From Candidatus Latescibacterota bacterium (GTDB lineage: Bacteria > Latescibacterota > UBA2968 > UBA8231), in NCBI GenBank assembly GCA_965221775.1, contig CBDCSU010000006.1, positions 1,184,001-1,248,000 of the forward strand: a stretch of DNA of 64,000 bases, in the 5' to 3' direction. Shown one piece after another: positions 33,282-62,649 of the stretch. The first letter of the stretch is position 1, and each line of letters begins with the position of its first letter. Made by a program: the position numbers and the translations under genes. The notes under the pieces are model-generated. The model was given only the letters and a program-made list of their open reading frames with translations, was not told where the DNA came from and did not search any database.

Positions 33282-33702
33282 TGCAGACATCGGCATCACG
33301 TCGAACCCTTCGGTCCCCCACATCCTCCCCCAAGCCGCTCCGGATGGCTACGGGACCCAACCGTCTCTACACCCTTAGCCAATTGATCTCAAATTGCCTC
33401 CTGTGACCTTCCTCCATAACTTCCTCAGCCTTGGTTTTCCCACCCCTCCGAGATACCGACCCCACAACCACTTCACTTCCCCATGCCAGTCACCAACATC
33501 CGAGCGCGGGGCCCCTCAAGGAGACCGCGTCCGAGCCATGCTCGCTTCCCAAGCCCCCACCGGGCTGTCGTCAAGGCTCCACCCATTAACCTCCCCCGCC
33601 CAACGCGCCCAGTACAATGCTCGGACGGCGGAGCTTCGTTCATCCACTAACCTTCCCCGCGTCTGACCAGCCCGATCCCACCCACGAAAGAGGCATCTTG
33701 GA

Positions 33703-44227: not shown

Positions 44228-44243
44228 GGCCCGGCGGCGAGCC

Positions 44244-46943
44244 ATGAACCGGACCCTGGCAGCGGCGGCGTTGTTGATGGCGGCACCCGCGTGGGCCCAG
44301 GAGAACGTGGCCCTCGGGGCGAGCTACACCCTCGACCCGCCGCCGAACTACGCGCACAGCACCGACGCCGGCGACGGTGTGCAACTGACGGACGGGGTCT
44401 ACACGGAGGGTTACTTCTGGACGCAGTTGTCGACGGTGGGCTGGCAGGAGAAGAAGCCCGTGATCGTGACGATCGACCTGGGCGCGGTGAGGCCCATACG
44501 GGGGGTCTCCTTCAGCACGGCGGGGGGATCCGCGGACGTGAGGTGGCCGCTGGCGATCGGCATCTTCACGGCGGGAGAGGACCGGCTCTTCCACGAGATC
44601 GGGGACCTGGTGGAGTTGAGCGCGGAACACGGCTCCCCTTCCGCGTCGGAGTACGGGACCCATCGATACTGGACGGATGAGTTGCGCACCCACGGCCGTC
44701 ATGTCGGTCTGGTCGTGTGGAACGAGCCCTTCACCTTCGTCGACGAGATCGAGGTCTACGCGGGCGAGGCGGAGTGGGTCGACGAGCCGCTGCCGGGGCC
44801 GGGGATCGCCGACCTGAAGGCGCACGCGGGCCGGCTCGCCATCCAGGCGGGGATCCGGACCCGCATCTCGCGGGACATGCAGGCCCTGAGGCGGGCGGCG
44901 GAAGAAGAGGGTGTCCCGGCGCAGACGCGGGGCGAGGTGCTGGACGAGCTGGCCGCCGTGGAGGCGGAACTGGCCGAGGCGGGCGCCGCCTTCGGAGACG
45001 ACTTTCGGGCGGTGCTGCCCCTGAATCCGTGGCACGAGCGCGTGCTGCGCGCGCAGGCTCGGCTGTGGCGCGCCCGGGGGCTGCAGCCGCTCACCTTCTG
45101 GCGCTCGAACCTGTGGGATCCGCTGCCCCTCATCGGAACGCCGGACACGGCCGCGGGACCGGCCCTCGAGGTCCACCTGATGCGCAAGGAGCACCGAGCG
45201 GCCGCATTCAATGTGAGCAACAGCGGCGACGAGCCGGTGCAGGTGGCCTTCCGCCTGAGCGGGTTTCCGGGGGGCGACAACCCGGGGTACGTGACCGTCC
45301 ACGAGGTGGCCTGGACGGACACGCGCACCGGGGTGCCGGTGGCCGCGGCCCTGCCCGAGGTCGCTGCCGAGGACGGTCGGTACGCGGTCTCCGTGCCCTC
45401 GGGCATGACCCGGCAGGTGTGGCTCACCTTCCATCCCGTGGACGCGGCGCCGGGGATCCACGAGGGCGAGGTGATCGTGGAGTCCGGCGGGGGCGCGCGG
45501 TTCCCGCTGCGAATGCACCTCTATCCCCTCGACTTCCCGGAAGAGCCGTCCCTGCACCTGGGCGGATGGGACTACACGGACCAGGTCGGCCATCACCGCC
45601 TGGTGACGGACCGGAACCGCCCGGCGCTGATCCGGCATCTCCGCGAGCACCTCGTCGACTCGCCGTGGGGTCTGCCGTGGGCGCTGCCGCGGGGCACGCA
45701 CGATGCGCAGGGGGCTATGACGGCGCCGCCCGACACGGACCACTTCGATGCCTGGCTCGAGCTGTGGCCGGGCGCGTCCCGGTACCTCGTCTTCGCGAAG
45801 GTGGGCACTCACTTCGAGTCGTGGGAGATGGGCACGCCGGAGTTCGCGACGGCGGTGAAGGCGTGGGTCACGTTCTGGGCGGGACAGATGGAGGCGAAGG
45901 GCCTGCAGCCGGAACAGCTGGCGCTGCTGCTGGTGGACGAGCCCCGCGAGCCGGCCCATGACGAGCGCATCCTGGCGTGGGCGAAGGCGATCCGCGAGGC
46001 GGGCACGGGGGTCCGCGTCTGGGAGAACCCGAACCACCGCGACATGAGCCAGGCGAACCAGGAGATGATCGATGCGTGCCACGTCCTGTGCCCCCACCGA
46101 CAGATCTTCCTGGAGGCGGGCCAGGACTACCGCGACTACTACGTGGAGAAGCGCGAGCAGGGGATCGAGCTGGAGTTCTACTCGGCGTGGGCGACGCGTC
46201 TCTTCGATCCGTACGCCGGCCGGCTGACGGCGTGGACGAGCTGGCGCTACGGGGCGACGGGGATGCACTTCTGGTCGATGGGCGACACCGGCGGCGAGTC
46301 CTCGTGGAACGAGTACGCGGCCTCGAAGGACGGGTACGCGCCCCTGTTCCTCGACGAGCACTCGGTGACGGCCGGCAAGCAGCTCGAAGCGGTGCGCGAA
46401 GGGGTGGAGGACTACGAGTACTTCGCCATGCTGGACCGGGAGATCCGCAAGGCAGCGGAGCAGGGGGTGACGGGTCCGGAGGCGGAGGAGGCGCGCCGGC
46501 TGCTGGAGAGGCTGCCGGTGACCGTTCTGGAGGCGGCGGGCCGGGAGACCCACTGGCTGAGCGGGATCGACCGCACCCTGGCCGACGAGGCGCGGATCCA
46601 GGTGCTGGAGGCGTTGACCGAGCTGACGGCCCTCACCGCCGTGGCGCAGCCGGCCTCCCGGCCCCACGAGTTCCGGTTGGAGCAGAACCACCCCAACCCC
46701 TTCAATCCCGAGACGATGATCGGGTTCTCTGTCCGCGGGCGGGGCGACGTCGAGCTCGCGATCTACAACCTCGCCGGGCAGAGGGCCCGGACCCTGCTGA
46801 GCGCGGTCCTCGAGGCGGGGAAGCACTCGGCCCGGTGGGACGGCCGCGACGACCACGGACGCAAGCTGGCCAGCGGCGTGTATGTCTACAGGCTGCGGGC
46901 AGGGGAGCAGGTCGATACGCGCAGGCTGCTGCTGCTCAAGTAG
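44244..46943 (+). CDS. secreted glycoside-hydrolase-like protein (discoidin-like N-terminus, DUF4091-like region) with FlgD/T9SS type-A C-terminal domain
   Basis: Signal peptide; LTDG...IDLG..EIEVY; LEAVREGVEDYEY; QNHPNPFNPET...IYNLAGQ...WDGRD..G..LASGVYVYRL. Confidence 0.75.
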   Translation: MNRTLAAAALLMAAPAWAQENVALGASYTLDPPPNYAHSTDAGDGVQLTDGVYTEGYFWTQLSTVGWQEKKPVIVTIDLGAVRPIRGVSFSTAGGSADVRWPLAIGIFTAGEDRLFHEIGDLVELSAEHGSPSASEYGTHRYWTDELRTHGRHVGLVVWNEPFTFVDEIEVYAGEAEWVDEPLPGPGIADLKAHAGRLAIQAGIRTRISRDMQALRRAAEEEGVPAQTRGEVLDELAAVEAELAEAGAAFGDDFRAVLPLNPWHERVLRAQARLWRARGLQPLTFWRSNLWDPLPLIGTPDTAAGPALEVHLMRKEHRAAAFNVSNSGDEPVQVAFRLSGFPGGDNPGYVTVHEVAWTDTRTGVPVAAALPEVAAEDGRYAVSVPSGMTRQVWLTFHPVDAAPGIHEGEVIVESGGGARFPLRMHLYPLDFPEEPSLHLGGWDYTDQVGHHRLVTDRNRPALIRHLREHLVDSPWGLPWALPRGTHDAQGAMTAPPDTDHFDAWLELWPGASRYLVFAKVGTHFESWEMGTPEFATAVKAWVTFWAGQMEAKGLQPEQLALLLVDEPREPAHDERILAWAKAIREAGTGVRVWENPNHRDMSQANQEMIDACHVLCPHRQIFLEAGQDYRDYYVEKREQGIELEFYSAWATRLFDPYAGRLTAWTSWRYGATGMHFWSMGDTGGESSWNEYAASKDGYAPLFLDEHSVTAGKQLEAVREGVEDYEYFAMLDREIRKAAEQGVTGPEAEEARRLLERLPVTVLEAAGRETHWLSGIDRTLADEARIQVLEALTELTALTAVAQPASRPHEFRLEQNHPNPFNPETMIGFSVRGRGDVELAIYNLAGQRARTLLSAVLEAGKHSARWDGRDDHGRKLASGVYVYRLRAGEQVDTRRLLLLK

Positions 46944-46963
46944 GACATCCGACAAGGAGATCC

Positions 46964-49795
46964 ATGCGCACCACGAGAGTGCTGACAGCCGTCGGCCTGG
47001 CGGCGCTGATCGCCGGCCCGGCCTTCGCGCAGCAGAGCCCCCCGGGGCTGGACTGGCGGCGGATCCGGACCGAGCGGTTCAACGTCATCTTCCCCGCCCG
47101 GATCACCGCCGATGCCCAACGCGTGGCCAACACGCTCGAGCACATCTACGGCCCGGTCTCGAAGACGCTGAAAGGTCCGGAGAAGCCGGTGGATGTGGTG
47201 CTGATGAACCAGGTGGCCGAGGCCAACGGCTTCGTCGCCATGGCGCCCCGCCGCACCGTGTGGTTCAGCACCCCGCCCCAGGGCACGGGGCTCAGCGGCG
47301 AGTGGTACCAGTTGCTGGCCGTCCACGAGATGCGCCACGTGGTCCAGAACGACCGCCTGCGCCGGGGCTTCATCCGCCTGGCGTGGCTCCTCTCCGGAGA
47401 GTTCGGCCAGAGCGCGATGAGCCACCTGCTGGTGCCGTCGTGGTTCTGGGAGGGCGATGCCGTGGGGATCGAGACGGCCCTGAGCACGACCGGGCGCGGG
47501 CGCATGCCGCGGTTCGATCTGGACATCCGGGCCCTGCTCCTCGACGGACGGCGCTACTCCTACTACAAGGCCCTCCACCGCTCGTACCGCGACTGGTATC
47601 CCAGTCACTACCCCTTGGGGTACTTCCTGACGACCTACGTCCGGCGCCACCACGGCGCCGGGACGTGGGACCGGGTTCTGGGACGCACCGCCTGGTGGGG
47701 GTTCCACCCCTTCTCCTTCAGCCGCGCCCTGAGGAAGCACACCGGCGCCAGCGCCGCCGGCACCTACGAGCGCGCCATGGACGAGCTGACCGGCTTGTGG
47801 CAGGCGCAGCAGGAGGGCCTGGTGACGACGCCCCTGCGGGTGCTGCCCGGTCAGAGCCAGTCGGACATCTGGACCAACTACTCGTACCCGCACCCGCTGC
47901 CGGACGGCAGTGTCCTGGCGAGCAAGGTCGGACTCGCCGACCCGCCGACCCTGGTGAGGCTCCACCCCGACGGCCGCCAGGAGCGCCTGCGCCAGTACAG
48001 TTCCCTCGGCGGCTTTCGCGTCGGCGGCGGCATCGCCGCCTGGAACCGCCGCACCCCGGACCCGCGCTGGGGCTTCCGCAGCTACTCGGACATCATGGTC
48101 CTGGAGATCGACAGCGGCCGCGCGCGCCAGCTCACCCGCAAGGCCCGGCTCTTCGCCCCGGCTCCCTCTCCCGATGGCGCCCGCATTGCCGCCGTCGAGT
48201 TCGGGCCGGACCGGCGCTGCCACCTCGTGCTGCTGGAGACCGCCACGGGCGCCGAGCAGGCCCGGTTCCCGGCCCCCGACGGGGTTTTCTGGCGCAGACC
48301 GGCGTGGTCGGAGGACGGCCGCCATATCGCCGTGGTGCGCCAGGACGAGGCCGGCAACACCCTCGAGCGCATCGACGCCGCCGACGGCCGGGGGGAGATC
48401 GTGCTGCCCCATACCCACGACGTCATCGGCTGGCCGGTCTTCCGGGGTCCCTACCTGCTCTTCGACTCCCCCCGGTCGGGGATCGACAACATCCACGCCG
48501 TCCACCTGGCGAGCGGGGCCCGCTACCGGGTGACCTCCCGCCCCCTGGCGGCGACCCGTGCGGCCGTCGCCGGAGACTCCCTCCTGTTCCAGGAGTACAC
48601 CGTCGACGGCTACCGCATCGCGGCCATGGCCCTGGACCCCGCGGCCTGGACGCCGGCCGAGCAGGTCGAGGACCGCAAGGTGCGCTACTTCGAGCCGCTC
48701 ATCGACCAGGAGCACGGCGGTCCCCTGTCGATGGACATCCCGCCGCGGTCCTGGCCGGTGAGCGACTATCGGCCCCTGGCGAATCTGCTCAAAGTCCACA
48801 GCTGGTCCTTCAGTACCCTGTCGCCGCTCCACTCCCTCACCCTCATTTCCCGCGATCTCCTCGATCTCAGCAGTATGAGCGGCGGCGTCGAGTACAACAG
48901 CAACGAGAGCGCCTTCAGTGCCCTGGGCGGCCTCCGCCTGGCGGCGTGGTATCCGGTGCTCAGCGTCGGCGGCCGCTGGGGCGAGCGCGCCTCGGAGTAC
49001 GAGATCGACGGGGAGAAGACCAGCGACAAGTGGACCGAGAAGAGCCTGCTGCTCGGGGCCCAACTGCCCCTGGACTTCTCCCGCGGCCCCTGGAGGTCTT
49101 TCGTCCAGATGGGCGCAGGGGTGGAGTGGACGGATATCTCCGGCCAGGCGATCGAGCTGTATCCACCCGACGCGGACGGCCTGTGGGACGGGAACGGGAA
49201 CGGACGCTTCGCGCCCCTGACGTACCGGCTAACCCTCGGGCGGTTGCGCCAGCCGGCGTCTCGCGACCTGGCCCCGCTCTGGGGTCAGAGACTGCAGCTG
49301 GCCCTGCGCCACACGCCCCTGGCCGGCGACTACGACGGCACCCTGCTGTCGGGGCGGCTGGTATTTCGCTTCCCCGGTCTGGCCGCCCACCACAGCCTGC
49401 GCCTCGACGGCGGCTACGAGTGGCAGGACCCCTCCGCGGACGACGCCCTTCCCTACCGCTTTGCCAGCGAGCTGCCCTTCGTCCGCGGCTACGGCTACCG
49501 CTTCCACCGCCGGTTCCTGCAAGGGGGCGCCAACTATGCCCTGCCGCTGCTCTACCCCGACTGGAACCTGGGCGCGCTGGTCTACGTCAAGCGCCTCAAG
49601 GTCAACCTCTTCTACGACTACGGCCGCGGCGAGGACGACTCCCTGCCTGCCAGGGTCTACCAGTCGGCCGGCGGCGAGCTGACGGCGGACTTCCATCCCT
49701 TCTCGCTGCCGATCCCGCTGGACATGGGCGTGCGCTGCGCCTACCGCTTCGAAGAGGGAGATTCGCGCTGTGAAGCAGTGGTCAATTTGCAATAG
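46964..49795 (+). CDS. outer-membrane protein: HExxH gluzincin-like domain + TolB-like propeller + beta-barrel
   Basis: Signal peptide; HEMRH...WFWEGDAV; PAPSPDG and PAWSEDG PD40-like repeats; amphipathic C-terminal strands with VRGY. Confidence 0.7.
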   Translation: MRTTRVLTAVGLAALIAGPAFAQQSPPGLDWRRIRTERFNVIFPARITADAQRVANTLEHIYGPVSKTLKGPEKPVDVVLMNQVAEANGFVAMAPRRTVWFSTPPQGTGLSGEWYQLLAVHEMRHVVQNDRLRRGFIRLAWLLSGEFGQSAMSHLLVPSWFWEGDAVGIETALSTTGRGRMPRFDLDIRALLLDGRRYSYYKALHRSYRDWYPSHYPLGYFLTTYVRRHHGAGTWDRVLGRTAWWGFHPFSFSRALRKHTGASAAGTYERAMDELTGLWQAQQEGLVTTPLRVLPGQSQSDIWTNYSYPHPLPDGSVLASKVGLADPPTLVRLHPDGRQERLRQYSSLGGFRVGGGIAAWNRRTPDPRWGFRSYSDIMVLEIDSGRARQLTRKARLFAPAPSPDGARIAAVEFGPDRRCHLVLLETATGAEQARFPAPDGVFWRRPAWSEDGRHIAVVRQDEAGNTLERIDAADGRGEIVLPHTHDVIGWPVFRGPYLLFDSPRSGIDNIHAVHLASGARYRVTSRPLAATRAAVAGDSLLFQEYTVDGYRIAAMALDPAAWTPAEQVEDRKVRYFEPLIDQEHGGPLSMDIPPRSWPVSDYRPLANLLKVHSWSFSTLSPLHSLTLISRDLLDLSSMSGGVEYNSNESAFSALGGLRLAAWYPVLSVGGRWGERASEYEIDGEKTSDKWTEKSLLLGAQLPLDFSRGPWRSFVQMGAGVEWTDISGQAIELYPPDADGLWDGNGNGRFAPLTYRLTLGRLRQPASRDLAPLWGQRLQLALRHTPLAGDYDGTLLSGRLVFRFPGLAAHHSLRLDGGYEWQDPSADDALPYRFASELPFVRGYGYRFHRRFLQGGANYALPLLYPDWNLGALVYVKRLKVNLFYDYGRGEDDSLPARVYQSAGGELTADFHPFSLPIPLDMGVRCAYRFEEGDSRCEAVVNLQ

Positions 49796-52443: not shown

Positions 52444-53484
52444 ATGTCTTCGTATGGCGATCATGGGCTGCCGCCGTTCCCGGAGGGGTGGTATCTCCTC
52501 ACGACCCGCGAGTCCCTTCTCCGGAAGGGACTGATCGAGAAGACCTTCCTCGGCCGGCAAGTCGTCGCCTGGTGCGACGACGAAGGCCGCGTCTGCGTGG
52601 CCGACTCCGTGTGTCCCCACCTTGGCTCGAGCCTCGGTCCGGACGTGGGCGGCCAGGTGTGCAACGGCCGACTCGTCTGTCCCTTCCACGGCTTCCAGTT
52701 CGATGCCACCGGCCAATGCGTCGCCACCCCCAACGCCCCGGCCCCCAAGGCCGCCAGACTGAGCGTCTACCCCACCCGGGAGATCCTCGGCCTCGTCTTC
52801 GCCTGGTTCGGCAGCGGCGGCCGGCCTCCGCCCTGGGACCTTCCCGCGGCCCCTCCCACCACCCCGGAGTGGAGCAAGCCGGGATTCCGGCACCTCCGCT
52901 TCCGGGGCCATCCCCAGGAGACGGGGGAGAACTCCGTGGATCTTGGACACCTCCGCTACGTGCACGGCTACGACAATGTGCATCCCGTCGGTTCGGTCAC
53001 GGTGGACGGCCCCTACCTCAAGAGTTGCTTCGACTTCAAGAGGGTCCGCAGGATCCTCGGGGTAAAGGACCTCGTGTACGAGGTCTCGGCCGTCACCCAC
53101 ATCCATGGACTCGGCTACTCCCTGGTAGAGATCCACGAGAAGACGATCGACATGCATGCGAGATTGTGGGTGCTCCCCACACCGGTGGATGGCACGCTCC
53201 TCGACCTCGTGCTCGTCAGCCAACTGCGCGAGATCCGCAAGCCCCGGCGGTTCATCACCGGCCTGGGTTTCCTGCCCGGCAAGCTGCGCCAGAAGTCGAT
53301 GAACCAGATCCTCCTCTCCCAGCAGAAGCGGGACGTCATCCAGGATGTGGTGATCTGGGAAGGAAAGCGGTTTCGGACGCCGCCGCGGCTGTGCCGGGCC
53401 GACGGCCCCATCGGGACGTACCGCCGCTACTGCCGGCAGTTCTATCCGGAAGACCCGCCGTCGGTGGAAGACGCCGCCGAATAA
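52444..53484 (+). CDS. Rieske [2Fe-2S] non-heme iron oxygenase (Neverland/KshA-like)
   Basis: CPHLG...CPFHGFQF Rieske motif; ENSVDLGHLRYVH mononuclear Fe motif; QDVVIWEGK, DGPIGTYRRY. Confidence 0.88.
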   Translation: MSSYGDHGLPPFPEGWYLLTTRESLLRKGLIEKTFLGRQVVAWCDDEGRVCVADSVCPHLGSSLGPDVGGQVCNGRLVCPFHGFQFDATGQCVATPNAPAPKAARLSVYPTREILGLVFAWFGSGGRPPPWDLPAAPPTTPEWSKPGFRHLRFRGHPQETGENSVDLGHLRYVHGYDNVHPVGSVTVDGPYLKSCFDFKRVRRILGVKDLVYEVSAVTHIHGLGYSLVEIHEKTIDMHARLWVLPTPVDGTLLDLVLVSQLREIRKPRRFITGLGFLPGKLRQKSMNQILLSQQKRDVIQDVVIWEGKRFRTPPRLCRADGPIGTYRRYCRQFYPEDPPSVEDAAE

Positions 53485-53596
53485 CCGGCCACACAGGTTC
53501 GCCTCCGGACCAGAGCGCGGGAAGCCACCGAGGGTACCATGCGGCGCATCGCCATGATGTACGGGTGGCGCTTCAGGAAGGCGGCGGACTGAACGG

Positions 53597-54670
53597 TTAC
53601 GGCTTACGAGCCAGGAAACAGTACAGGGGCGTGAAGATACCCGCCTTGCCGCCCGAGACATAAGCCTCCGCGGTGCGGTCCAGGAGTCGGACCACTTCCG
53701 CGGAGCCCTTCGGAAAGCGCCGCAGTACTTCAGCCAGCTTCGATCCTGCGATGACCGCTTTGCGGCCCCACGGAAGCCTGCGCAAGGCCTTCCCCAACGT
53801 CCCGTGGCGGCTCTCCATGGGCTGATACCAGGGTATGGAGGGGCCTTCCTGGACGTCCAGGTCCATCCCTTCCATGACCTGGAATCCCGCGGCTTCGAGG
53901 GCGTGATTCACTTCCCCGAAGGTGGCTATGTGCTTCAGCGCAATGCCGCGCATGAGATCCCGCTTGATGGCCCGGTGCCGGTCGTCCTTCGGATTGAACT
54001 GGTCTGTCAGACACATCTCCTGACCCCAGAACAGGGCCCCGGGTTTCAGCACGCGGAATACCTCCTCGAAGGCACGTTGCTTGTCCGGCGCGTGGCACGT
54101 CGACTCGATGGCATAACCCCGATCGAAGGTGCCGTCCTCAATGGCCCTCATGTCCATGAAGCTGCACGTCTCGAAATCGACCATGTGATCGAGCCCCGCC
54201 TCGGCGATCGACCCTCTCGCCTTTTCCAACTGCACCTCGCTGATGTTGATCCCCACGACCCTGACACCAGCCTCCCGGACGACGCGGAGCATGGGGGCGC
54301 CGACTCCACAACCAACGTCGACCACCGTCATACCCTTTTGCAGCTCCAACTTGGAGATCATCATCCGCTGATGCCGGACCTTGGATTCCTCCAGACTCTC
54401 ATCAGGTGTGAGGGGCGCGAAGTGCAGGGATTCGCCCCAGCCCCATACCATGAACCCGCTGCAAAGGTCGTAATAGTCCTTCACTGTTTCAGTGTGTTCG
54501 TAGCCGCCTGCGCCACCGGGCTGCGGCGCCGCCCGGTCGAGCCAGCCGTCGAAGTGCTGCACTCGACGCGCGACGCCCGATCCCCGGTACGCATCTCTCA
54601 GATCTCTCGACAGCTTGCCCAGCCGCACCCGGTCTTTCTCCCTGGCTCCAGGAACGAGCCATGTCGTCAA
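53597..54670 (-). CDS. sterol C24-methyltransferase-like SAM-dependent methyltransferase
   Basis: YYDL...GWGESLHF, DVGCGVGAP, YAIESTCHAP, VLKPG, C-terminal GIFTPLYCFLARKP: the SMT/ERG6 motif set. Confidence 0.82.
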   Translation of the reverse strand: MTTWLVPGAREKDRVRLGKLSRDLRDAYRGSGVARRVQHFDGWLDRAAPQPGGAGGYEHTETVKDYYDLCSGFMVWGWGESLHFAPLTPDESLEESKVRHQRMMISKLELQKGMTVVDVGCGVGAPMLRVVREAGVRVVGINISEVQLEKARGSIAEAGLDHMVDFETCSFMDMRAIEDGTFDRGYAIESTCHAPDKQRAFEEVFRVLKPGALFWGQEMCLTDQFNPKDDRHRAIKRDLMRGIALKHIATFGEVNHALEAAGFQVMEGMDLDVQEGPSIPWYQPMESRHGTLGKALRRLPWGRKAVIAGSKLAEVLRRFPKGSAEVVRLLDRTAEAYVSGGKAGIFTPLYCFLARKP

Positions 54671-54673
54671 TCG

Positions 54674-56701
54674 TCAGGCGGACAGCTCCCGTCTCTGCTC
54701 GGCGATGCGGAACTTCAGCTTCTTGCTCGGTTTGAGCGACGGAAAGGGACTGAAACGGAGCTTGTACTTCGCTGGCGACACCTCGATCGTGAAGTAGTGC
54801 GCCAGCATCAGCAAGTTGGCCGCCAGGTGCAGCTCCATCCACCGGGTGCCCAGACACTTGTGCGTACCCAGCCCGTACGGGGCGTACCCGGGGCTGCGAT
54901 GCTCATGGCGCGGGGCCAGGTAGCGGTCGATGTCGAACTTCCAGGGATCCGGAAAGACCTCGCTCATGTAATGCGTGGCGGTCATGGCGATGTGGACCCG
55001 TTCGCCCACGCGCAGCTCGTAGTCCTCGACCACGCACGCATTCATCACGTTCCGCATGGACATGGAGACGATGGGGTACATGCGCAGGCACTCCATGAGG
55101 AAGCGGTGCGTCACGTCGATCCTGTCGGGGGTGAAGTCCTCTCTCTCGGGGTCGCCCTTGGCGAACAGGGCATCCGCTTCGGTCTGGATTCTGGCGTAGA
55201 GGTCGGGCTGGGACGCCATGGCGTAGACTACGAGGCTGAACGTATCGCCGAGGTAAACGCTGGCAATCAAGGCCGCGGAAAAGGCGAAGAGCAGGTTGGA
55301 CTCCGGGAGAAACTGCGGGTCGCTGGCGTGCAGGCTGAGGTAATCGTCCACGAGGTCCCGCGGGAGGTCCGCCCGTTGGGCGGGGGTATGGATGCCCTGG
55401 ATCCGCTGCATCAGGGTGTCCAGGGCTTTCGCCCGGCGTCTCATGCCCGGGGTGTTCAGCATGAATCGGGGCAGGAGCTTGGCGATGTGCACGCTGAGGG
55501 CCCGTTCCTTGTAGGCCATCAGGTCGTCCATGAGGTCCTGGGTGTCGACGCTGAGGAACAGGGGCGAGAGCTGGGCGTTCACCATCCCCCGGCACATGGA
55601 CGTGGCGCGGTAGGAGTCCCCAACCGTCAAGCTCGCCATGTACTTGCGCCCCTGATTGTAGAGCTGGTCCAGCTGCTCTCCCAGCCTCGCGCCGGAAAAG
55701 GCCGGGGACAAGGACTTGCGAAGCCGGAAGTGATCGGCGCCGTCCAGGGCGGGCAGGACGCCGGCCGCGCCGTAGACCTTCTCGAAGTCGCTGAAGTAGT
55801 CCCTGCATCTCAGGTACATGCGCCCGCGCTTGTGCACCCAGCGGTTTGTCTCGAGTCCGGCCAGGAAGATCATGGGCTCCGAGAAGGGAGGGCGGATCTG
55901 GAACACCGGACCGTACTCCTCCGCAAGGCTCCCGAAGAGCGCGTTCAGGTTGCCGTCTCGAACATGCGGGTTCATCATCAGCTTGGGCAGCGAAACCGCC
56001 GGGATCTTCCTGGTAAGGGGGGGACGTTGAAGGGCCGGGCCGGTGAGGTTCTGAGAGACCGCAGCGGCCAGGGAGCGGCCGATCAGGTCCATCTTGCAGA
56101 TGAACTCGATGCGCTCTTCCGCCTCGTCGTCAAGTTCGAATATGAAGCGAAAGACGTCGCACGTATTGATGAGGCAGATAATGATGACATCTCTCGGATC
56201 GGGAATCTTGTCGGTGAAGATGACCCTGCTGATACGCGTCTTTATGAACTGGCCCGCAGTGCCCTCCTCCGACCTGCCGTACAGTTTCCCATGCCAAACA
56301 GTAGGAGCCAGCGTCCAGAAATCGCCGTCGTGGTATTCCAGGATCTTCAGGTCAACCAGGCGATCCAGAACCGAATCGATGATCGACTCCGCACGGGGAG
56401 CGAGCCGTTCAATCCAGTACTGGGCGTTCCGTTGAACAGATTCGGCTGCAATTTCTTTCAGAATGGGGTCCAGGGCAGGGTTGCCTGTTTCCGACGCGTC
56501 CACGAGGAACAGGGATTCCATGTCCGTGTCGATGCGAGATCTGAGTGAAAGCTCCGCGAGCACGGCACCGACCAGGGCACAGTTCAGATGCCAGCCGGGT
56601 ACCTGATGAAAGTAGCCGGTCTCCTCGTTGAGGAGCATCAGGATGAGCTCTTGAGTCAGAGTCAGCGGTTGGGGCGTCAAACCCTCCGTAGTGTCAGTCA
56701 T
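54674..56701 (-). CDS. GPP34/GOLPH3-domain - cytochrome P450 fusion
   Basis: N-terminal LTLTQELILMLLNEETG...ALVGAVLAELSLRSRI...TGNPALDPIL; C-terminal ECLRMYP (ExxR), FDIDRY, PYGLGTHKCLG heme motif. Confidence 0.85.
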   Translation of the reverse strand: MTDTTEGLTPQPLTLTQELILMLLNEETGYFHQVPGWHLNCALVGAVLAELSLRSRIDTDMESLFLVDASETGNPALDPILKEIAAESVQRNAQYWIERLAPRAESIIDSVLDRLVDLKILEYHDGDFWTLAPTVWHGKLYGRSEEGTAGQFIKTRISRVIFTDKIPDPRDVIIICLINTCDVFRFIFELDDEAEERIEFICKMDLIGRSLAAAVSQNLTGPALQRPPLTRKIPAVSLPKLMMNPHVRDGNLNALFGSLAEEYGPVFQIRPPFSEPMIFLAGLETNRWVHKRGRMYLRCRDYFSDFEKVYGAAGVLPALDGADHFRLRKSLSPAFSGARLGEQLDQLYNQGRKYMASLTVGDSYRATSMCRGMVNAQLSPLFLSVDTQDLMDDLMAYKERALSVHIAKLLPRFMLNTPGMRRRAKALDTLMQRIQGIHTPAQRADLPRDLVDDYLSLHASDPQFLPESNLLFAFSAALIASVYLGDTFSLVVYAMASQPDLYARIQTEADALFAKGDPEREDFTPDRIDVTHRFLMECLRMYPIVSMSMRNVMNACVVEDYELRVGERVHIAMTATHYMSEVFPDPWKFDIDRYLAPRHEHRSPGYAPYGLGTHKCLGTRWMELHLAANLLMLAHYFTIEVSPAKYKLRFSPFPSLKPSKKLKFRIAEQRRELSA

Positions 56702-59700
56702 CAGCCTTCACTCCCTGCGTCTGCACCGGGGACGCGCCGGGAGCCGGAAGGGCCGCTCGAGGCCGTCAGACGCGAGTGGATGGTGGAAAGAGCGGGAACG
56801 ACCATCATCAGTACGGCGGTGACAATGAGAATGCCGCAACCGAGGGATGCGGCAAAGGGGATCAGGAACTGGGCCTGAATGGCGCGTTCCAGAATGAGGG
56901 GCGTGAAGCCGAGGAAGGTGGTCACGGAAGTGAGCATGATCGGACGAAAGCGGCCCTTGGCGCCCTCGATGATCGCTGTTCGCGCCGGGGCCCCGTCCCT
57001 GAGTTTCTGATCGATGAAATCGATCATGACCAGGGAATCGTTCACGACAACCCCGCTCAGGCCGAAGATACCCATGAAGGATACCGCGCTCAAGGCCACT
57101 CCCAGGACCCAGTGGCCCAGGATCACCCCGATGAACCCGAAGGGGATGACGGCCATGATGATGAGGGGCTTGGTATAGGAGCGAAGTGGAATGGCGAGGA
57201 GCGCGAAGATCATGATCAGGGCGATGGCGAACCCCCGGTACAGGGCATCCAGGGACTCGAGTTGCTGTTGCTGCTCCCCTCCGAAGCTGTATGTCAGGTC
57301 AGGGTGCACGGCGGTCAGGCCCGGGAGGATCGAATTGGCCAGGATGTCGTTGGCTTCGTCACCGGAAATCACCGAAGCATCGACGTCCGCCGTGACCGTG
57401 ACGACGCGCTGGCCGTCCTTCCGTCGGATGGCCGGCGGCGACACGCCCGGGCTCAGGGAGGCCACACTCATGACCGGGACCTCGGCCCCGCCCGGGGTGC
57501 GGACCAGGTACCCTTCGACATCGGTGATGGAGTCACGCTCATGGGCGGGGAGGCGCACGTAGACCCGGACCTCTTCCCGGCCGCGCTGCACCCGAACCGC
57601 CTCTGCGCCGAAGAACGCGGCGCGCGCCTGCCCGGCCAGCTCCTGGAGCGTGAGACCGAGGGTGCGCGCTTCCGGCCGGAGCTCCAGTTGCACCTCCGGG
57701 ATGCCCGGCGTGTGATCCGAACGTATGTCGTAGACGCCTCCCACACTTCGGAGGCCTTCGACCACCGAGTCCGCGATCTCGGCGAGAAGCTCCGGGTCCG
57801 GATGCGACAGCACGGCCTCCACGGCGTTGCCCAAGGTGAAGACCTCGGCGCTGAAGGTGATGCCGCGCACATGGGGCAGGACTCCCACCTCCTCCCGCCA
57901 CGCCTGCACGACCTCTCCGGTGGAGATCTGTCTCTGCTGCGCGCCCAGGAGCTTGAACTCGATGGTGGCGATATTGGCTTGGGGATTGAGTGTGGGCTCC
58001 GGGTTGAGCCCGCCCTCGAGTCTCGACCCCTGTCCGACGGTCACCGTCACACCGGTCAGCAGCGGTGGCGCGTCCCCGGGCCGGCCGAGGGAGAGTCGTT
58101 CGATGACCCGGTGGCCTGCGGCCTCCAGTTCCCGCGCCACTTCGTACGTCCTCGGAGCGGTCGCCCCATCGGGCATCTCCAGGACGACCGTCGCGATATC
58201 CCCCTCCACCTCAGCGGCCAGCGTGGTAGGAACGATGCCCGCGGGCAACAGGGAGATGCTCAGCACGAGCATTCCCACGGCCCCCGCCATCGTCACCCCG
58301 GGCTGGTCCGTGGCGAACCTCAGGGCCCGGTCCAGAGGCCCTTGCAGGAACCTGTTCAGCAGCGCGTTCACGCGCCCCTGGAGCCGCGCGAAGAACCGGT
58401 CGAAGGCATTGGCCGGCTCCCACTCCGGGCCGTGCAAATGGGACAGGTGGTTGGGCAGCACCAGCAGCGATTCGACCAGGGAAACCAGCAGCATGGCGAT
58501 GATGATGATCGGCAGGGCCCGCCAGACGTCACCGACGCCTCCCGGGATGAACAGCAAGGGGACGAAGGCCACCACCGAAGTGAGGACGGCGAAGGTCAAG
58601 GGCACCTTGATCCGCCGTACGCCTCGGATCGCGGCCGCGACCCCGGGGGTCCCCCGCTTGCGTTCCGATTGAATGTGCTCGGCCACGACGATGGCATCGT
58701 CGACGATGATGCCGATGGCGAGGACGAAGGAGAACAGGCTGATGGTGTTGATCGCCACGTCGAGTGCCATCATGATGGCGAGGGCGCCCATACCAGAAAC
58801 GGCGAGGCCCACGGCGACCCAGAGGGCGAGCCGGATTTCGAGAAACAGGCTGAGTGCGATCAGCACCAGCACCAGCCCCAGGAGCCCGTTCTTGAGGAGG
58901 AGATCGGCGCGTTCCTCGTAGACTTGGGATTCGTCATTCCACATGGTGACGCCCACACCGTCCGGCAGGGCCGGGATCACCTCGTCCGCCAGGTGCTCGC
59001 GGACGGTCCTGGCCACGTCCATCACCTGCTCGCCATCGGCCCGGTAGACCTCGACGAAGACGGCGGGGTGGTTCTGATGCCGCACGATCAGGTCCGCTTC
59101 CTGGAAACCGTCGCGGACCTCGGCGATATCTCCAAGGCGCAGGACCGTGCCGTCACGGCCGCTGAGGAGGACGACCTCCTCGAAGTCCTTCTGGTCGTAG
59201 TTCTGGCCGAGGGTGCGGACCCTCACCTGGGATTCCCGGGTATCGATGCTGCCGGCGGACAGGTCCAGGGAACTCCGGCGAATCGTGTCGGCGATGTCGG
59301 TGAGCGTGAGTCCGAGGGCCCGCAGGCGGTGGAGGGGCACCTCGATGGAGATCTCGTAGCTCCGGACACCGCTGACCTCGACCTGGGAGACGGAGGGGAG
59401 CGTCGTGAGGTCGTCCTCGATCTGGTACGCCAGTTCCTTCAGCGCGCGCTCGGAGACGTCGCCGTGGACGATGAGCCGCATCATGCTCAGGCGGTTGTCC
59501 ATCTCCCGGAACAGGGGACGTTCGGCGCCGGCCGGGAAGGACTGTATTCGATTGACCGCGGACTCGATATCGTCCAAGGCCCGGGCCATGTCCGTATCGA
59601 AAGCCATTTGAACCCGCACCGAGGCCATACCCGGGGCGGCTACGGACTTGACCGCCTTCACGTCATCCAGCCCGCTGACCTGGTCCTCGATCCTGACGAC

Positions 59701-59922
59701 GATCGACTCCTCGATCTCCTCCGGTGTGGCGCCGGGATAGGCCATCGAGACTTCGATATGGTAGAATGGGGTCGTGGGCCAGGCTTCCCGCTCGATACCG
59801 GTCAGCGCCACCACCCCGGCGGCGACGATGGCCCACATCAACAGGTTGGCGGCCACACCGTTGCCGGCCATGTAGGCGATCGGGCCGGGCCGTTCCTCGT
59901 GATTGCCGTTGCCGGGACTCAT
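56701..59922 (-). CDS. RND efflux permease (AcrB/HAE1-like)
   Basis: YPGATPEEIE, GIIVDDAIVVAE, GVVVNDSLV, RFRPIMLTS; 1073 aa. Confidence 0.95.
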   Translation of the reverse strand: MSPGNGNHEERPGPIAYMAGNGVAANLLMWAIVAAGVVALTGIEREAWPTTPFYHIEVSMAYPGATPEEIEESIVVRIEDQVSGLDDVKAVKSVAAPGMASVRVQMAFDTDMARALDDIESAVNRIQSFPAGAERPLFREMDNRLSMMRLIVHGDVSERALKELAYQIEDDLTTLPSVSQVEVSGVRSYEISIEVPLHRLRALGLTLTDIADTIRRSSLDLSAGSIDTRESQVRVRTLGQNYDQKDFEEVVLLSGRDGTVLRLGDIAEVRDGFQEADLIVRHQNHPAVFVEVYRADGEQVMDVARTVREHLADEVIPALPDGVGVTMWNDESQVYEERADLLLKNGLLGLVLVLIALSLFLEIRLALWVAVGLAVSGMGALAIMMALDVAINTISLFSFVLAIGIIVDDAIVVAEHIQSERKRGTPGVAAAIRGVRRIKVPLTFAVLTSVVAFVPLLFIPGGVGDVWRALPIIIIAMLLVSLVESLLVLPNHLSHLHGPEWEPANAFDRFFARLQGRVNALLNRFLQGPLDRALRFATDQPGVTMAGAVGMLVLSISLLPAGIVPTTLAAEVEGDIATVVLEMPDGATAPRTYEVARELEAAGHRVIERLSLGRPGDAPPLLTGVTVTVGQGSRLEGGLNPEPTLNPQANIATIEFKLLGAQQRQISTGEVVQAWREEVGVLPHVRGITFSAEVFTLGNAVEAVLSHPDPELLAEIADSVVEGLRSVGGVYDIRSDHTPGIPEVQLELRPEARTLGLTLQELAGQARAAFFGAEAVRVQRGREEVRVYVRLPAHERDSITDVEGYLVRTPGGAEVPVMSVASLSPGVSPPAIRRKDGQRVVTVTADVDASVISGDEANDILANSILPGLTAVHPDLTYSFGGEQQQQLESLDALYRGFAIALIMIFALLAIPLRSYTKPLIIMAVIPFGFIGVILGHWVLGVALSAVSFMGIFGLSGVVVNDSLVMIDFIDQKLRDGAPARTAIIEGAKGRFRPIMLTSVTTFLGFTPLILERAIQAQFLIPFAASLGCGILIVTAVLMMVVPALSTIHSRLTASSGPSGSRRVPGADAGSEG

Positions 59923-61097
59923 GGCGCGGGGTCGGCCTCCGTGAGGACGCGCATGCCCTCGGTGGCGAACCGGATTCCGCCGGTGACTACCGTGCCGCCG
60001 CCTTCCAGGCCGCCGGTGACGAATACCCGGTCGTCGGCGCGCTGAAGCACGCGCACCGGAACGATGCTCACCACCCCGTCCTTCACCGTCCAGACCTCGT
60101 CGCCCGGCTGGAGGGCTGCTCTCGGCACCTTGAAGTAATCATCCGGCGCCAGGCCCTCGATCTCCACCTCCACGAAGGCACCCACGAGCAACGGATGCAC
60201 GCCCGCCGGGAACGGGTCCGTCACGCGCACGATCACGTCGATGGTGCGCGTTCGCGCGTCGAGGGCCGCCTCGCCCCGATCGACGTAGCCCTCCCAGGCA
60301 TGACTCCCGCCGCGCGACGGGGCGACCACCCGGGCCGCCACCCGCCGGTCCCCATCCCCCGGCGCGAGTTCCCACAGCCCCGGGATCAGGGCCGCGTCGG
60401 CATCGGAGACGGGCACCACCACCTCCACCGCATCCGCGGCGAAGAGGCGCCCCACGCTCTGTCCGGGCGCGAGAATCTGTCCCACGTCGACGGACTCGTC
60501 GCGCACGAAGCCGTCGAAGGGCGCGGTCACCCGTGTCCTGGAAAGGGAGAGCTCCGCGTCGGCCAGCCGTGCCTGGTCGCGCTCGAGGGCGGCACGGGCC
60601 GCCTCCAGTTGCGGCTCCCTCAGGGTGAGGGGACTGGCGGCCGGCGCCGAAGATGCACTCCCCTGCCGCTCGGAGTAGAGCCGGTACTGGTCGCGGGCGA
60701 TGGCGGCCCGTTCCTCTTCCTCGAGCAGGGCCACGCGGCGGGCGGCGAGATTGGCCTCGGCTTCCTGCACCCGGTGGAGGTAGTCCGCCTCTTCGATGCG
60801 GAACAGCGCCTGGCCCGCCTTCACCCGGCCCCCGCTCTGGAATCCCGGGTCCACCCACACGACTCGCCCGCCCACCTGCGGCGCCACGTCGATCTCCGCG
60901 CTCGGCCTCACGGTGCCGGCCCCGTACACGGGTATGGCGCCGGACCCGGCCGTTACCCGGCCCGTCTGGGCGAAGGGGATCTGCGGCGGCGGCTCGGTGC
61001 GGGCCGGCTCGGGGGCCATGGAGACCAGGAGGGCCGCCAGGCCCACGGCAACGACGAGGATGGCGGCGGCGGCGACGAGGCTGCGGATGCGGGACAT
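59919..61097 (-). CDS. RND periplasmic adaptor (MFP) subunit
   Basis: N-terminal TM, PQVGGRV, TAPFDG, VPRAAL, GLEGG.TVVT; ATG 61097. Confidence 0.92.
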   Translation of the reverse strand: MSRIRSLVAAAAILVVAVGLAALLVSMAPEPARTEPPPQIPFAQTGRVTAGSGAIPVYGAGTVRPSAEIDVAPQVGGRVVWVDPGFQSGGRVKAGQALFRIEEADYLHRVQEAEANLAARRVALLEEEERAAIARDQYRLYSERQGSASSAPAASPLTLREPQLEAARAALERDQARLADAELSLSRTRVTAPFDGFVRDESVDVGQILAPGQSVGRLFAADAVEVVVPVSDADAALIPGLWELAPGDGDRRVAARVVAPSRGGSHAWEGYVDRGEAALDARTRTIDVIVRVTDPFPAGVHPLLVGAFVEVEIEGLAPDDYFKVPRAALQPGDEVWTVKDGVVSIVPVRVLQRADDRVFVTGGLEGGGTVVTGGIRFATEGMRVLTEADPAP

Positions 61098-61104
61098 GGG
61101 CGAC

Positions 61105-62649
61105 TTACTCCGTGGAGGTCGGCGGCGGGGTAGCGGCAGCCGCGCTGCTCTGCCGGATGGCTTCCCGGTTGTCGGCGGTCCACGCGCCGCCCAGCGCGCG
61201 GTGCAGCGCGAGGCGGGCGTAGCCGAGGTCACGTTCGGCGGCCGCCTGCGCGGCCTGCGCGCCGAGGAGAGTCTGCGATGCGGCCAGGAAAGCCTCGTAC
61301 CCGCCGACCCCGGAGAGGTACCGCCGCTCCTGCAACCCCGCTTCGGCCCCGGCCTCCTCTGCCAGCGAGACCAGCAGCGAGTGGCGGCGGCGGCTGGCCT
61401 CCAGACCGGCGAGAGCGGCCTCGACCTCGTTGACCGCGGTCACCACGGCCCGCCCGTAGGCGGCGGCCGCCTCATCCAGCCGGGCCTCGGCGAGAGCGAC
61501 ATTGCCGCGAAGGCGTGAACCCTGGAAAACCGGGCCGAGCAGGTTCAGGCTGAGATTCCGGAACCACTGATCCGGGTCGAACCACTCGTCCGCCTCGGTG
61601 CTCTGCACTCCGATGGAGCCGTGCAGGGACAGTCGCGGCAGCAGGTCCGCGCGGCGGGCGCCGACGGTGTACCGGGCCGCTTCCGCCCGCTGCCTGGCGG
61701 CGCCGACGTCGGGCCGCTGCGCCAGGAGGCCGGCGGGAATGCCGGCCGGGACCGGCTCCAGCGCCGCGGCAGGGGTCAGCGGGCCGGGCAGCCTGTCCGC
61801 GAGGTCGGCGCGGTAACCTCCCAGGAGCACCCACAGCCGCCCCTCCGCATCGGCCAGCAGGGCCTCGATCTGCGGCAGCCCGGCCTGCGTGTTGCGCAGA
61901 TGGCGCCGCGCCGCATGGAGGCCGCCCGCATCGCTCAGGCCGCGGCCATAGCGGGACTCGGCAAGGGACTCCTGGTGCCGCAGGATCTCCACGATCTCGC
62001 CGGTCAGCCTCCGCTGCCGGCGCAGGTTGGCGATCTCGAGGTAGGTCCGCACGGTCTCGGCCAGCACCCCCATGCGGGCTGTGAGGTAGTCGGACTCCGA
62101 GGCCAGCCGCGCGGCCCCGGCGGCGAGGGCGTCGTTTCGGTTCCGGCCCCAGAAGTCGAGCTCGTAGGCGACTTCCGCGGCGGCGGTATAGGTGGTCAGT
62201 CCGAGACGGTCGGGGAGAACGAGTCCGGATGCACCCAGACCGGACTCCAGGCCCAGTTCGTCGAATTGGGCGCCGATGCCCGCATTGGTGGGTGTGTCGG
62301 AGTCGCTGACGCCGACCGAGGGCTGAAGGAGCGGAAAGACCGGGGCCCTGGCGATGCGGGCCCGGGCCCTGGCCTGATCGACCCGGGCCACCGCCGCGGC
62401 CAGGTCGAAGTTCGAGGCGAGCACCTCCGCGATCACCCGGTCGAGCATCGGGTCGGAAAAGCTCTTCCACCACTCCCGCGGCTCGTAGGGACCGGCCGCT
62501 TCCCCGCCGGCGAACCCGGCCGGCAGCTCCTCCACCGACTCGAGGACCGGGGGGGTCTGCTTCGGTGCAAGGGAGCAGGCGGAGATGAGACAGCCGACGA
62601 TGGCCGGCCTCAGCAATCCGGAAACCTGGTTCCTCCCATAGCAGGCCAT
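61105..62649 (-). CDS. outer-membrane efflux lipoprotein (TolC/NodT family)
   Basis: LISAC lipobox, WWKSFSDP, YELDFWGR, LLAQRPDV, LHRALGGAW. Confidence 0.93.
   Translation of the reverse strand: MACYGRNQVSGLLRPAIVGCLISACSLAPKQTPPVLESVEELPAGFAGGEAAGPYEPREWWKSFSDPMLDRVIAEVLASNFDLAAAVARVDQARARARIARAPVFPLLQPSVGVSDSDTPTNAGIGAQFDELGLESGLGASGLVLPDRLGLTTYTAAAEVAYELDFWGRNRNDALAAGAARLASESDYLTARMGVLAETVRTYLEIANLRRQRRLTGEIVEILRHQESLAESRYGRGLSDAGGLHAARRHLRNTQAGLPQIEALLADAEGRLWVLLGGYRADLADRLPGPLTPAAALEPVPAGIPAGLLAQRPDVGAARQRAEAARYTVGARRADLLPRLSLHGSIGVQSTEADEWFDPDQWFRNLSLNLLGPVFQGSRLRGNVALAEARLDEAAAAYGRAVVTAVNEVEAALAGLEASRRRHSLLVSLAEEAGAEAGLQERRYLSGVGGYEAFLAASQTLLGAQAAQAAAERDLGYARLALHRALGGAWTADNREAIRQSSAAAATPPPTSTE

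Follow-up and report, generated by a model that had tools for sequence, protein, structure and literature searches.

Gene content and layout of the locus

The subject of this report is a six-gene locus at positions 52444 to 62649 of a 64,000-nucleotide stretch of contig CBDCSU010000006.1 (Candidatus Latescibacterota bacterium, assembly GCA_965221775.1); this whole stretch is called the window below. The locus brings together a Rieske oxygenase, a divergent sterol-methyltransferase-type enzyme (SMT), a fusion of a GPP34 domain with a cytochrome P450, and the genes of a predicted transport system of the resistance-nodulation-division (RND) type. An earlier note, made from the letters of the window alone, had proposed that these genes tailor an exogenous sterol or other lipid and export the product. 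Pfam searches confirmed all six gene calls in position and in family, and comparisons with other genomes establish that these six genes represent one instance of a module that is conserved and has spread horizontally.

Five of the genes lie on the minus strand and are arranged as an operon. Its first gene (61105-62649) encodes an outer-membrane factor (OMF) of the NodT/TolC type with 514 amino acids, which scores 135 bits with the Pfam family OEP and 265 bits, above the cut-off, with TIGR01845. Next comes the gene for a periplasmic adaptor, a membrane fusion protein (MFP) of the HlyD type (59919-61097; TIGR01730, 177 bits, above the cut-off). The longest open reading frame (ORF) of the adaptor starts from GTG at 61232, but we prefer the ATG at 61097, because the resulting gap of 7 nucleotides after the OMF stop fits that start. 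The adaptor gene overlaps in ATGA with the gene for a 1073-amino-acid RND permease (56701-59922), which scores 523 bits with Pfam ACR_tran and 418 bits, below the cut-off of 1250, with the NCBIfam model RND_permease_2. Judged by gene content, permease, adaptor and OMF make up a tripartite HAE1-type RND system. The permease gene shares one base, within TGATG, with the gene of the GPP34-P450 fusion (54674-56701), and the last gene of the operon encodes the SMT (53597-54670). A gap of 3 nucleotides between these two genes presupposes TTG at 54670 as the start of the SMT. However, the GTG at 54628 is preceded by GGGAGAAAG, a good ribosome-binding site, and the SMT protein on record (P0124) has 343 amino acids, the length that this start gives; the gap is therefore more likely 45 nucleotides. 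The tight coupling of the five genes that was originally described thus holds at the junctions of 7 nucleotides, ATGA and TGATG, and is probably looser before the SMT. On the plus strand, the gene for a KshA-like Rieske non-haem iron oxygenase of 346 amino acids (52444-53484) converges on the SMT gene, with 112 nucleotides separating the two stops.

The G+C content of the locus is uneven. It amounts to 62.5% in the SMT gene, 61.5% in the P450 gene, 66.0% in the RND gene and 66.4% in the Rieske gene, with a window mean of 68.0%, and to 72.9-73.5% in the adaptor gene, the OMF gene and the neighbouring gene for prolyl aminopeptidase. The genes for the enzymes and the RND permease thus lie 7-12 percentage points below their neighbours, in agreement with the differing codon style remarked on in the earlier note. 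This difference does not extend to the adaptor and OMF genes, which resemble the neighbouring gene, and further stretches of the window are likewise poor in G+C. Contigs from two RNA libraries match the SMT, P450, RND and OMF genes and the adaptor/RND junction, with 0-2 differences in the best pieces. Such libraries may contain DNA and their contigs cannot prove transcription, so that they give no more than a hint that the operon is transcribed. Gaps in this contig cover carry no weight either way.

The fusion is encoded in one frame of 675 amino acids. Its N-terminal part matches Pfam GPP34 (PF05719) with 102 bits over residues 15-216 (approximately 56054-56659), and its C-terminal part matches Pfam p450 with 111 bits over residues 239-662 (approximately 54716-55987). 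The loop YGLGTHKCLG (G610-G618, with C616) and residues E537 and R540 are invariant across 25 homologues, and the translation contains G485-D486-T487. We take these to be the haem-thiolate loop, the ExxR motif and the acid-alcohol pair of the I helix, respectively, and by these motifs the fusion carries an intact P450 of the catalytically competent type. In an AlphaFold2 model of the fusion (mean pLDDT 71.7, pTM 0.60), the GPP34 part is helical with pLDDT mostly at 80-90, the linker of residues 219-228 has low confidence, and the predicted substrate-recognition stretches at residues 383-473 fall below a pLDDT of 50. The nearest solved P450s are CYP51s and CYP204A3, with weak matches. Among the Foldseek matches listed, CYP51 does no better than CYP204, CYP725, CYP3A4 or BM3, and all are generic P450 matches.

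At least 120 database clusters are 73-100% identical to the fusion, and all of them carry both domains. Some relatives within the phylum (for example, G184, G174 and G199) have up to five full-length GPP34-P450 genes each. Among these genes are paralogues with no more than 32-38% identity to the window copy, and a few have an in-frame stop. Given several divergent paralogues per genome, the fusion has diversified into a family. The genome under study also has a stand-alone short GPP34 gene (C6:2239592-2240191; L087:9581-10240; 219 amino acids, 159 bits), which is flanked by genes for a xylose-isomerase-like protein, a DAO-type flavoprotein and an M19 dipeptidase. This gene is apparently outside the system, because it has no P450 or sterol-type neighbour.

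Recurrence and spread of the module

We scanned one genome per species for the fusion. The scan yielded 203 matching stretches, 190 of which encode a relative, and 79 fusion loci at 59-92% identity were kept. ORFs were called in all of these loci and clustered, and partners were counted within 10 kb. The Rieske orthogroup is present in 58 of the 79 loci and an SMT in 49, a count in which a few canonical SMTs are included along with those of the module type. The window-type RND permease is found in 34 loci, an 827-amino-acid MMPL pump with sterol-sensing/Patched domain matches also in 34, a flavin amine-oxidase-type protein in 26 and an MpaB/Lcp-type oxygenase in 7. Among the 66 full-length loci, 58 have a transporter, and 53 combine a transporter with at least one enzyme partner. 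The flanking genes of the window served as a control and recur in only 1-2 of the 79 loci, all from close relatives, except for two weak 29% matches to the window's binding-protein gene. The arrangement is far beyond chance, since genomes of many phyla have the same partners around the fusion. Gene order and strand vary between lineages, which argues for selection on the association and not for a merely inherited arrangement. The co-conservation on which the original proposal had been made to depend is therefore present, mostly in sponge-linked genomes (79 loci; for the link to sponges, the public runs described below and PMC11706023).

The same loci are informative about the transporter. RND permeases orthologous to that of the window (72-93% identity) adjoin the fusion in their 34 loci, whose labels are Gemmatimonadota/Latescibacterota, Gammaproteobacteria, Opitutia and Acidobacteriota; for example, identity to the window protein is 74% in a genome labelled Gammaproteobacteria and 85% in one labelled Opitutales. 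The window-type RND and the MMPL pump with a sterol-sensing domain never occur in the same locus. A second MMPL type is present in four more loci (L023, L026, L034 and L039), so an RND-superfamily pump stands beside the fusion in 72 of the 79 loci (34 + 34 + 4), and three of the seven pump-less loci are truncated contigs. The adaptor gene is kept beside the RND gene in 19 of the 79 loci, and the OMF gene lies upstream of the adaptor gene in 14. The proposal of a dedicated pump gains from the finding that the tripartite-type RND is swapped for sterol-sensing-domain MMPL pumps in other lineages.

The flavin amine-oxidase-type protein has 454 amino acids and its gene often lies between those for the SMT and the Rieske oxygenase (for example, L057:13151-14515). 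Its resemblance to protoporphyrinogen oxidase is confined to the N-terminus. The window has no gene for this protein, and the best match in the same genome is 32% identical (C6:421039).

A second locus, approximately 1.03 Mb away from the first (C6, approximately 2216600-2222400; L088:1639-7385), has four genes, for an MpaB/Lcp-type oxygenase, an MMPL pump with a sterol-sensing domain, a LolA-like protein and a 423-amino-acid protein with no assigned family. It adjoins IspH and the only squalene/phytoene synthase gene of the genome. Compared over its full length, the MMPL pump shares 60% identity with the MMPL pump beside a sterol-synthesis cluster in genome G004 (described below), and it is 58-59% identical to pumps in module loci labelled Binatia and Thermodesulfobacteriota, and the oxygenase is 36-49% identical to oxygenases in module loci. 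Parts that belong to the module in other lineages therefore sit here at a separate site.

Evidence for horizontal spread comes from identities to the window copy, which were measured in the same five genomes of other phyla. The fusion is 59-74% identical in these genomes. The corresponding values are 49-54% for adenylosuccinate synthetase in four genomes, with partial matches of 34-40% in the fifth, and 33-43% for citrate synthase. Within its own phylum, the fusion is patchy, occurring in 50 of 168 genomes, in 7 of 49 genera and in two of the nine other genomes of the same genus, and its closest copies (92%) belong to another family. The lower G+C content of the enzyme and RND genes points in the same direction. 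We built a quick FastTree phylogeny of 75 fusions, with local support values only and phylum labels from submitters' titles. The 11 phylum labels in this tree need 16 changes, compared with a minimum of 10, and transporter type needs only two. The labels include Chloroflexota, Latescibacterota, Gemmatimonadota, Pseudomonadota, Actinomycetota, Binatota, Verrucomicrobiota, Nitrospirota and Acidobacteriota; the Latescibacterota and Gemmatimonadota labels probably stand for one lineage.

As to habitat, half or more of the words sampled from the stretch are present in each of 11 public runs, which include sponge-metagenome-labelled runs from three studies. In PMC11706023, proteins with GPP34 and P450 domains are reported only from sponge symbionts (656 in a wider dataset), are called a monophyletic group, and are described as expressed in Aplysina metatranscriptomes. 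The organisms carrying the module live in sponges and, apparently, in some other marine hosts too.

The rest of the window encodes housekeeping proteins (ClpX, trigger factor, PurA and citrate synthase) and a G+C-poor defence island. From these surroundings, on a contig of 2.6 Mb, we place the module in the core chromosome. The island (23354-35573; 56-65% G+C) encodes a 1303-amino-acid protein with a Druantia DruA domain, a 1733-amino-acid protein with no family match and an AAA_21/AbiEii-type ATPase, and is probably an anti-phage defence island. Gene calls are ambiguous at 44016-49795, where long ORFs overlap on both strands and no Pfam family was found; a 1272-amino-acid ORF on the plus strand (45977-49795) has weak similarity to TolB beta-propellers.

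Substrate and function

No squalene-hopene or oxidosqualene cyclase had been seen in the window, and this absence extends to the whole genome (96.8% complete, 7.75% contamination), in which neither a SQHop_cyclase_N nor a SQHop_cyclase_C domain was found. ERG4/ERG24 was likewise not detected there, in a search that had no positive control genome. A cyclase survey covered 55 other module genomes, with 16 loci lying outside it. Strong cyclase matches were found in 19 of these genomes, two of which (G004 and G016) have a match that is oxidosqualene cyclase (OSC)-like by NCBIfam. All close relatives of the window genome within the survey are without a cyclase.

In G004, a genome labelled Nitrospirales, the module is contiguous with a complete sterol-synthesis cluster. 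The module part consists of the fusion, an SMT, the Rieske oxygenase, an outer-membrane beta-barrel gene and a flavoprotein. The pathway part encodes a canonical SMT, SdmB-like and SdmA-like proteins (the latter with 413 bits on NF052579), ERG4/24, a CYP51-like P450 (199 bits with Pfam p450), a squalene epoxidase-OSC fusion (TIGR03463, 737 bits) and an MMPL pump. Supplementary Data 1 of PMC10070321 gives the same gene order for a 'Nitrospira MAG' (genes 2682229270 to 2682229279), with names for the erg and sdm homologues only. The adjacency of module and sterol pathway is a strong clue, although it comes from one locus only. A 1189-amino-acid frame in G004 (L084:10560-14129) fuses squalene epoxidase to oxidosqualene cyclase. 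Since ERG1 and ERG7 matches fall on one gene in several sponge-symbiont clusters in PMC10070321, this fusion seems typical of such clusters.

The SMT scores 52.9 bits with Sterol_MT_C (PF08498), compared with a cut-off of 21.7, and also matches the class I domains Methyltransf_11, Methyltransf_25 and Methyltransf_31. Its 120 closest database relatives all carry PF08498. Region I (GWGESLHF), Region II (DVGCGVGAP) and YAIESTCH are present in the protein, which keeps G84, W85, H90, F91, D125, G127, G129, P133 and the glutamate of YAIE. According to a preprint by Brown and Welander (10.64898/2025.12.19.695621), 25 residues, including those of GWGXXFHF and DXGXGXXGP, are conserved in all functional SMTs, and the residues given there as retained in every tested SMT are kept in the window SMT. 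The motif of the module SMTs is GWG(E/Q/D)SLHF, in contrast to the canonical GWGxSFHF. The F-to-L variant occurs in 38 of the 56 SMT sequences from the loci, the canonical SMT of the de novo cluster has GWGQSFHF, and identity between the window SMT and its canonical counterpart in G004 is 43%. These differences would suggest that the L subtype has a different substrate, perhaps the product of the oxygenases, or a different target carbon. A comparison of the SMT with solved structures was uninformative, with generic methyltransferases as the best matches. One SMT database cluster (P0177; 477 amino acids) has an additional KshA_C domain and is either a genuine fusion of an SMT with a Rieske tail or a gene-calling artefact across convergent genes.

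The Rieske protein scores 56 bits with Pfam Rieske and 78 bits with KshA_C. Its translation shows CPH...CPFH and E-x3-D-x2-H-x4-H, presumably the Rieske cluster and the mononuclear iron site. Its best solved relative is KshA (85.6 bits), a similarity that is moderate and mostly N-terminal (residues 12-174). We rejected SdmA as its identity, because the protein scores 32 bits on NF052579, for which the cut-off is 600, and is 29% identical to an SdmA-like protein, in both cases in the Rieske domain only.

We favour the reading that this mobile module tailors an exogenous, probably host, sterol and transports the product outward, and we put its probability at approximately 0.55. Four elements of this reading are inferred: that the substrate is a sterol, in what order the reactions run, what GPP34 does and which way the product is moved. 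The link to sterols is drawn because the SMT is well over the Sterol_MT_C cut-off, KshA is the nearest solved Rieske enzyme, the substitute pumps have sterol-sensing domains, and the module adjoins a sterol pathway in G004. Under the favoured reading, an exogenous sterol would enter the cytoplasmic membrane, likely coming from the host or from neighbouring symbionts, since the genome has no cyclase of its own. GPP34 would hold the P450 at a membrane or lipid surface, by analogy with the N-terminal anchor of microsomal P450s. The P450 and the KshA-like Rieske enzyme would oxidise or desaturate the sterol with redox partners encoded elsewhere in the genome. The divergent SMT would methylate the side chain of a substrate that is probably neither desmosterol nor 24-methylenecholesterol. 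Finally, the putatively co-transcribed pump of RND permease, adaptor and OMF would carry the product from the inner membrane to the outer membrane or the outside; the way in which RND pumps generally work suggests export rather than relocation to the outer membrane.

Several observations weigh against this reading. The function of every module protein is predicted from sequence. CYP51 was rejected as the identity of the P450: the best match to a solved CYP51 has 63 bits and covers residues 428-642 only; among the Foldseek matches listed, identities are 14-20% with TM-scores of 0.56-0.69 by target length; and the P450 is 28% identical over 110 residues to a CYP51-like protein of a sterol cluster. 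The AlphaFold2 model of the fusion is moderate, and nothing firm can be taken from it on domain packing or pocket shape. No gene for a reductase, ferredoxin or other redox partner lies within the operon; the genome has five Fer2 matches, all outside the window. The SMT has L at the position of F89 and A at that of G132, so that one or two of the 25 conserved residues are missing. If F89 is indeed present in every functional SMT, any L-subtype enzyme among those tested would have had no activity on desmosterol or 24-methylenecholesterol. RND pumps are promiscuous, and sequence does not reveal in which direction they transport. Just one of the 79 loci has sterol-synthesis genes at a distance of 10 kb or less from the module. 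In addition, cyclases with scores like those of squalene-hopene cyclases (SHCs) are present in 17 of the surveyed module genomes; one of these cyclases was checked and is an SHC (TIGR01507, 779 bits), while the other 16 are typed by score only; hopanoids could therefore be the substrate in those genomes. The genome under study has a single squalene/phytoene synthase, beside IspH, and an endogenous acyclic isoprenoid is therefore a possible substrate. The MpaB/Lcp-type oxygenases of seven module loci would also point away from sterols, as members of this family cleave polyisoprenoid chains. Overall, the sterol reading has been borne out in part, by co-conservation, the absence of a cyclase, the pump swap and the G004 context, and is weakened by the divergence of the SMT.

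Many of the same observations suit another explanation, that the module tailors or expels a non-sterol isoprenoid or hydrophobic compound, such as the bacterium's own squalene or another acyclic triterpenoid, hopanoids in lineages with an SHC, or sponge terpenoids that are to be detoxified. The synthase beside IspH would supply the first of these, and SHC-like cyclases are found in 17 of the 55 surveyed genomes. Other points on this side are the departures of the SMT from residues conserved in functional sterol SMTs, the MpaB/Lcp-type oxygenases in 7 of the 79 loci, the flavoprotein in 26 of the 79, which resembles CrtI and protoporphyrinogen oxidase, and a P450 that is no nearer to CYP51 than to terpene and fatty-acid P450s. 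There is also a precedent in SMT-like enzymes of Botryococcus, which methylate squalene. Hopanoids are not a general substrate, because most module genomes, including that of the window, have no cyclase. The Sterol_MT_C score, the rank of KshA among solved Rieske enzymes and the matches of the substitute pumps to sterol-sensing domain models all speak for sterols instead, and in the one locus with informative neighbours, these encode a complete pathway for sterols and not for hopanoids or carotenoids. We regard a non-sterol substrate as rather unlikely, but as the most serious competitor to the sterol reading.

A third explanation takes up the published proposal for the fusion, namely a secreted effector, directed at the host, that binds phosphatidylinositol 4-phosphate (PI4P) on host phagosomes and blocks digestion of the symbiont (PMC11706023). 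The neighbouring genes would then be unrelated or would merely secrete the fusion. The score of 102 bits makes membership in GPP34 clear, the reported restriction to sponge symbionts and expression in sponge metatranscriptomes (PMC11706023) suit an effector, and an outer-membrane channel and a pump are, judging by the gene junctions, co-transcribed with the fusion. However, the similarity of the GPP34 domain to Vps74/GOLPH3 is a weak partial alignment over approximately 90 residues (E values of 0.012 to 0.09). In this low-confidence alignment W81 and R90, which we assume to be PI4P contacts, are unmatched. The fusion has an intact haem-thiolate P450 with invariant catalytic residues, and such an enzyme needs cytoplasmic haem and electron donors. 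The N-terminus of the translation, judged by eye, is not like a signal peptide, RND pumps move small hydrophobic molecules and not 75-kDa proteins, and the fusion is steadily accompanied by a methyltransferase, a Rieske oxygenase and lipid transporters. An effector role is accordingly improbable.

Still less probable is catabolism, in which host sterols would serve as a carbon source and the KshA-like enzyme would open the steroid nucleus. The closest solved Rieske relative, KshA, does act in this way in steroid degradation, and the KshA_C domain is present, but the resemblance is moderate and largely N-terminal, as stated above. A C-methyltransferase dependent on S-adenosylmethionine and an efflux-type pump point to anabolism or export rather than to catabolism, and the conserved neighbours include no further degradation genes; a genome search for KstD, HsaA-D and Mce4 was not made. 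Finally, the clustering might be meaningless, with a generic multidrug pump beside unrelated enzymes, and the RND permease does score as a generic HAE1-type multidrug permease under every equivalog cut-off; this can practically be dismissed, because the same RND orthogroup (72-93%) accompanies the fusion in several phyla and in differing gene orders, a different lipid pump replaces it elsewhere, start and stop codons overlap, and flanking genes are not conserved.

Relation to known systems and biologic meaning

The earlier note knew of no described pathway with this composition. This holds only in part: the components are in print (PMC11706023, PMC10070321 and PMC9531527), and our literature searches found no published description of the linked module. 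The module links three published observations, a connection that we did not find in the papers returned by these searches.

The first of these observations concerns the GPP34_L proteins (Ferreira et al. 2025, PMC11706023), which belong to the same family as the window fusion and have the same two-domain architecture. In that work, the protein is treated alone, as a putative secreted PI4P-binding effector, whereas here it is one gene of a conserved operon. The words sterol, methyltransferase, MMPL and RND are absent from the main text, and sterol, MMPL and efflux from the spreadsheet supplement. Rare GPP34-Rieske fusions are reported in the same source, and fit GPP34 as a shared accessory domain of both oxygenases.

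The second observation is that of bacterial SMTs from sponge symbionts and further metagenomes (Brown et al. 2023, PMC10070321), which share the Sterol_MT_C family with the module SMT. The SMT of 'Nitrospira sp., coral reef 2 of 2' (gene 2682229270) lies four genes from a canonical SMT, which is the position of the module SMT in G004. Canonical SMTs differ from the module type in the motif (GWGxSFHF versus GWG(E/Q/D)SLHF), and the window SMT has the 43% identity to the canonical one given above. The main text of that paper has no mention of a P450, a Rieske protein or a transporter. The third observation is that of ERG24-CYP51-LSS clusters in Ircinia symbionts (Kelly et al. 2022, PMC9531527), where sterol genes are enriched in sponge symbionts of approximately ten phyla and likewise horizontally spread. 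Those clusters are de novo and centred on oxidosqualene cyclase, whereas the window genome and most module genomes have no OSC. A de novo sterol cluster comprises OSC, squalene epoxidase, CYP51, ERG24 and SdmAB; the module enzymes are different paralogues, and the window genome has neither a cyclase nor ERG4/24.

Among transporters, BstABC of Methylococcus capsulatus (PMC10942540) and the hopanoid transporter HpnN are also RND-superfamily inner-membrane pumps for a polycyclic triterpenoid. The MMPL pumps of the module match them weakly, and orthology was rejected for both, with 25-32 bits on the BstA model (cut-off 1400) and 86-106 bits on the HpnN model (cut-off 752). The window pump is a tripartite HAE1-type RND and is not orthologous either. 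Among oxygenases, KshAB shares with the window protein the type of a Rieske and mononuclear-iron oxygenase of the steroid nucleus, with a moderate match (85.6 bits). However, the window cluster includes no KshB-type reductase, and the neighbours are an SMT, a P450 and pumps rather than catabolic genes. SdmAB is a Rieske steroid oxygenase too, and the window protein, with its 32 bits compared with 600, is clearly not SdmA. Taken together, these comparisons of sequence and gene content indicate that the module is probably a type of bacterial system for modifying and trafficking sterols, with the sterol role predicted.

A more specific version of the favoured sterol reading is tentative and on balance doubtful. 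Sponge sterols might be in part a joint product of host and symbiont, with a single mobile module, common to symbionts of 11 phylum labels in the sampled loci, taking up a host sterol, desaturating or hydroxylating it, methylating its side chain and pumping it back. The elements would be two GPP34-assisted oxygenases, an SMT that ignores the usual delta-24 substrates, and a product delivered to the bacterial surface or to the host. The methyl group could go onto a different carbon, and the 26-methyl sterols characteristic of certain demosponges are an example of this. GPP34, in this version, would be a membrane- or sterol-delivery domain for the oxygenases and not a PI4P effector, and sterol-coated envelopes could be the means by which symbionts escape from being eaten. 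If so, bacteria without a cyclase would contribute precursors of sterane biomarkers.

The operon joins a protein known as a marker of symbiosis, bacterial SMTs of the kind that confuse biomarker records, and the transferable sterol clusters of sponge microbiomes. If the module is active on sterols, a family of proteins that is reported from sponge symbionts alone would receive a defined function, and the module's SMT subtype, P450 and Rieske oxygenase would be candidates for enzymes behind those side chains of sponge sterols whose chemistry is unexplained. The module would also be a second case, after Methylococcus, of RND-superfamily pumps dedicated to bacterial sterol trafficking, and would mean that bacteria without sterol synthesis of their own shape the sterol pool of the holobiont.

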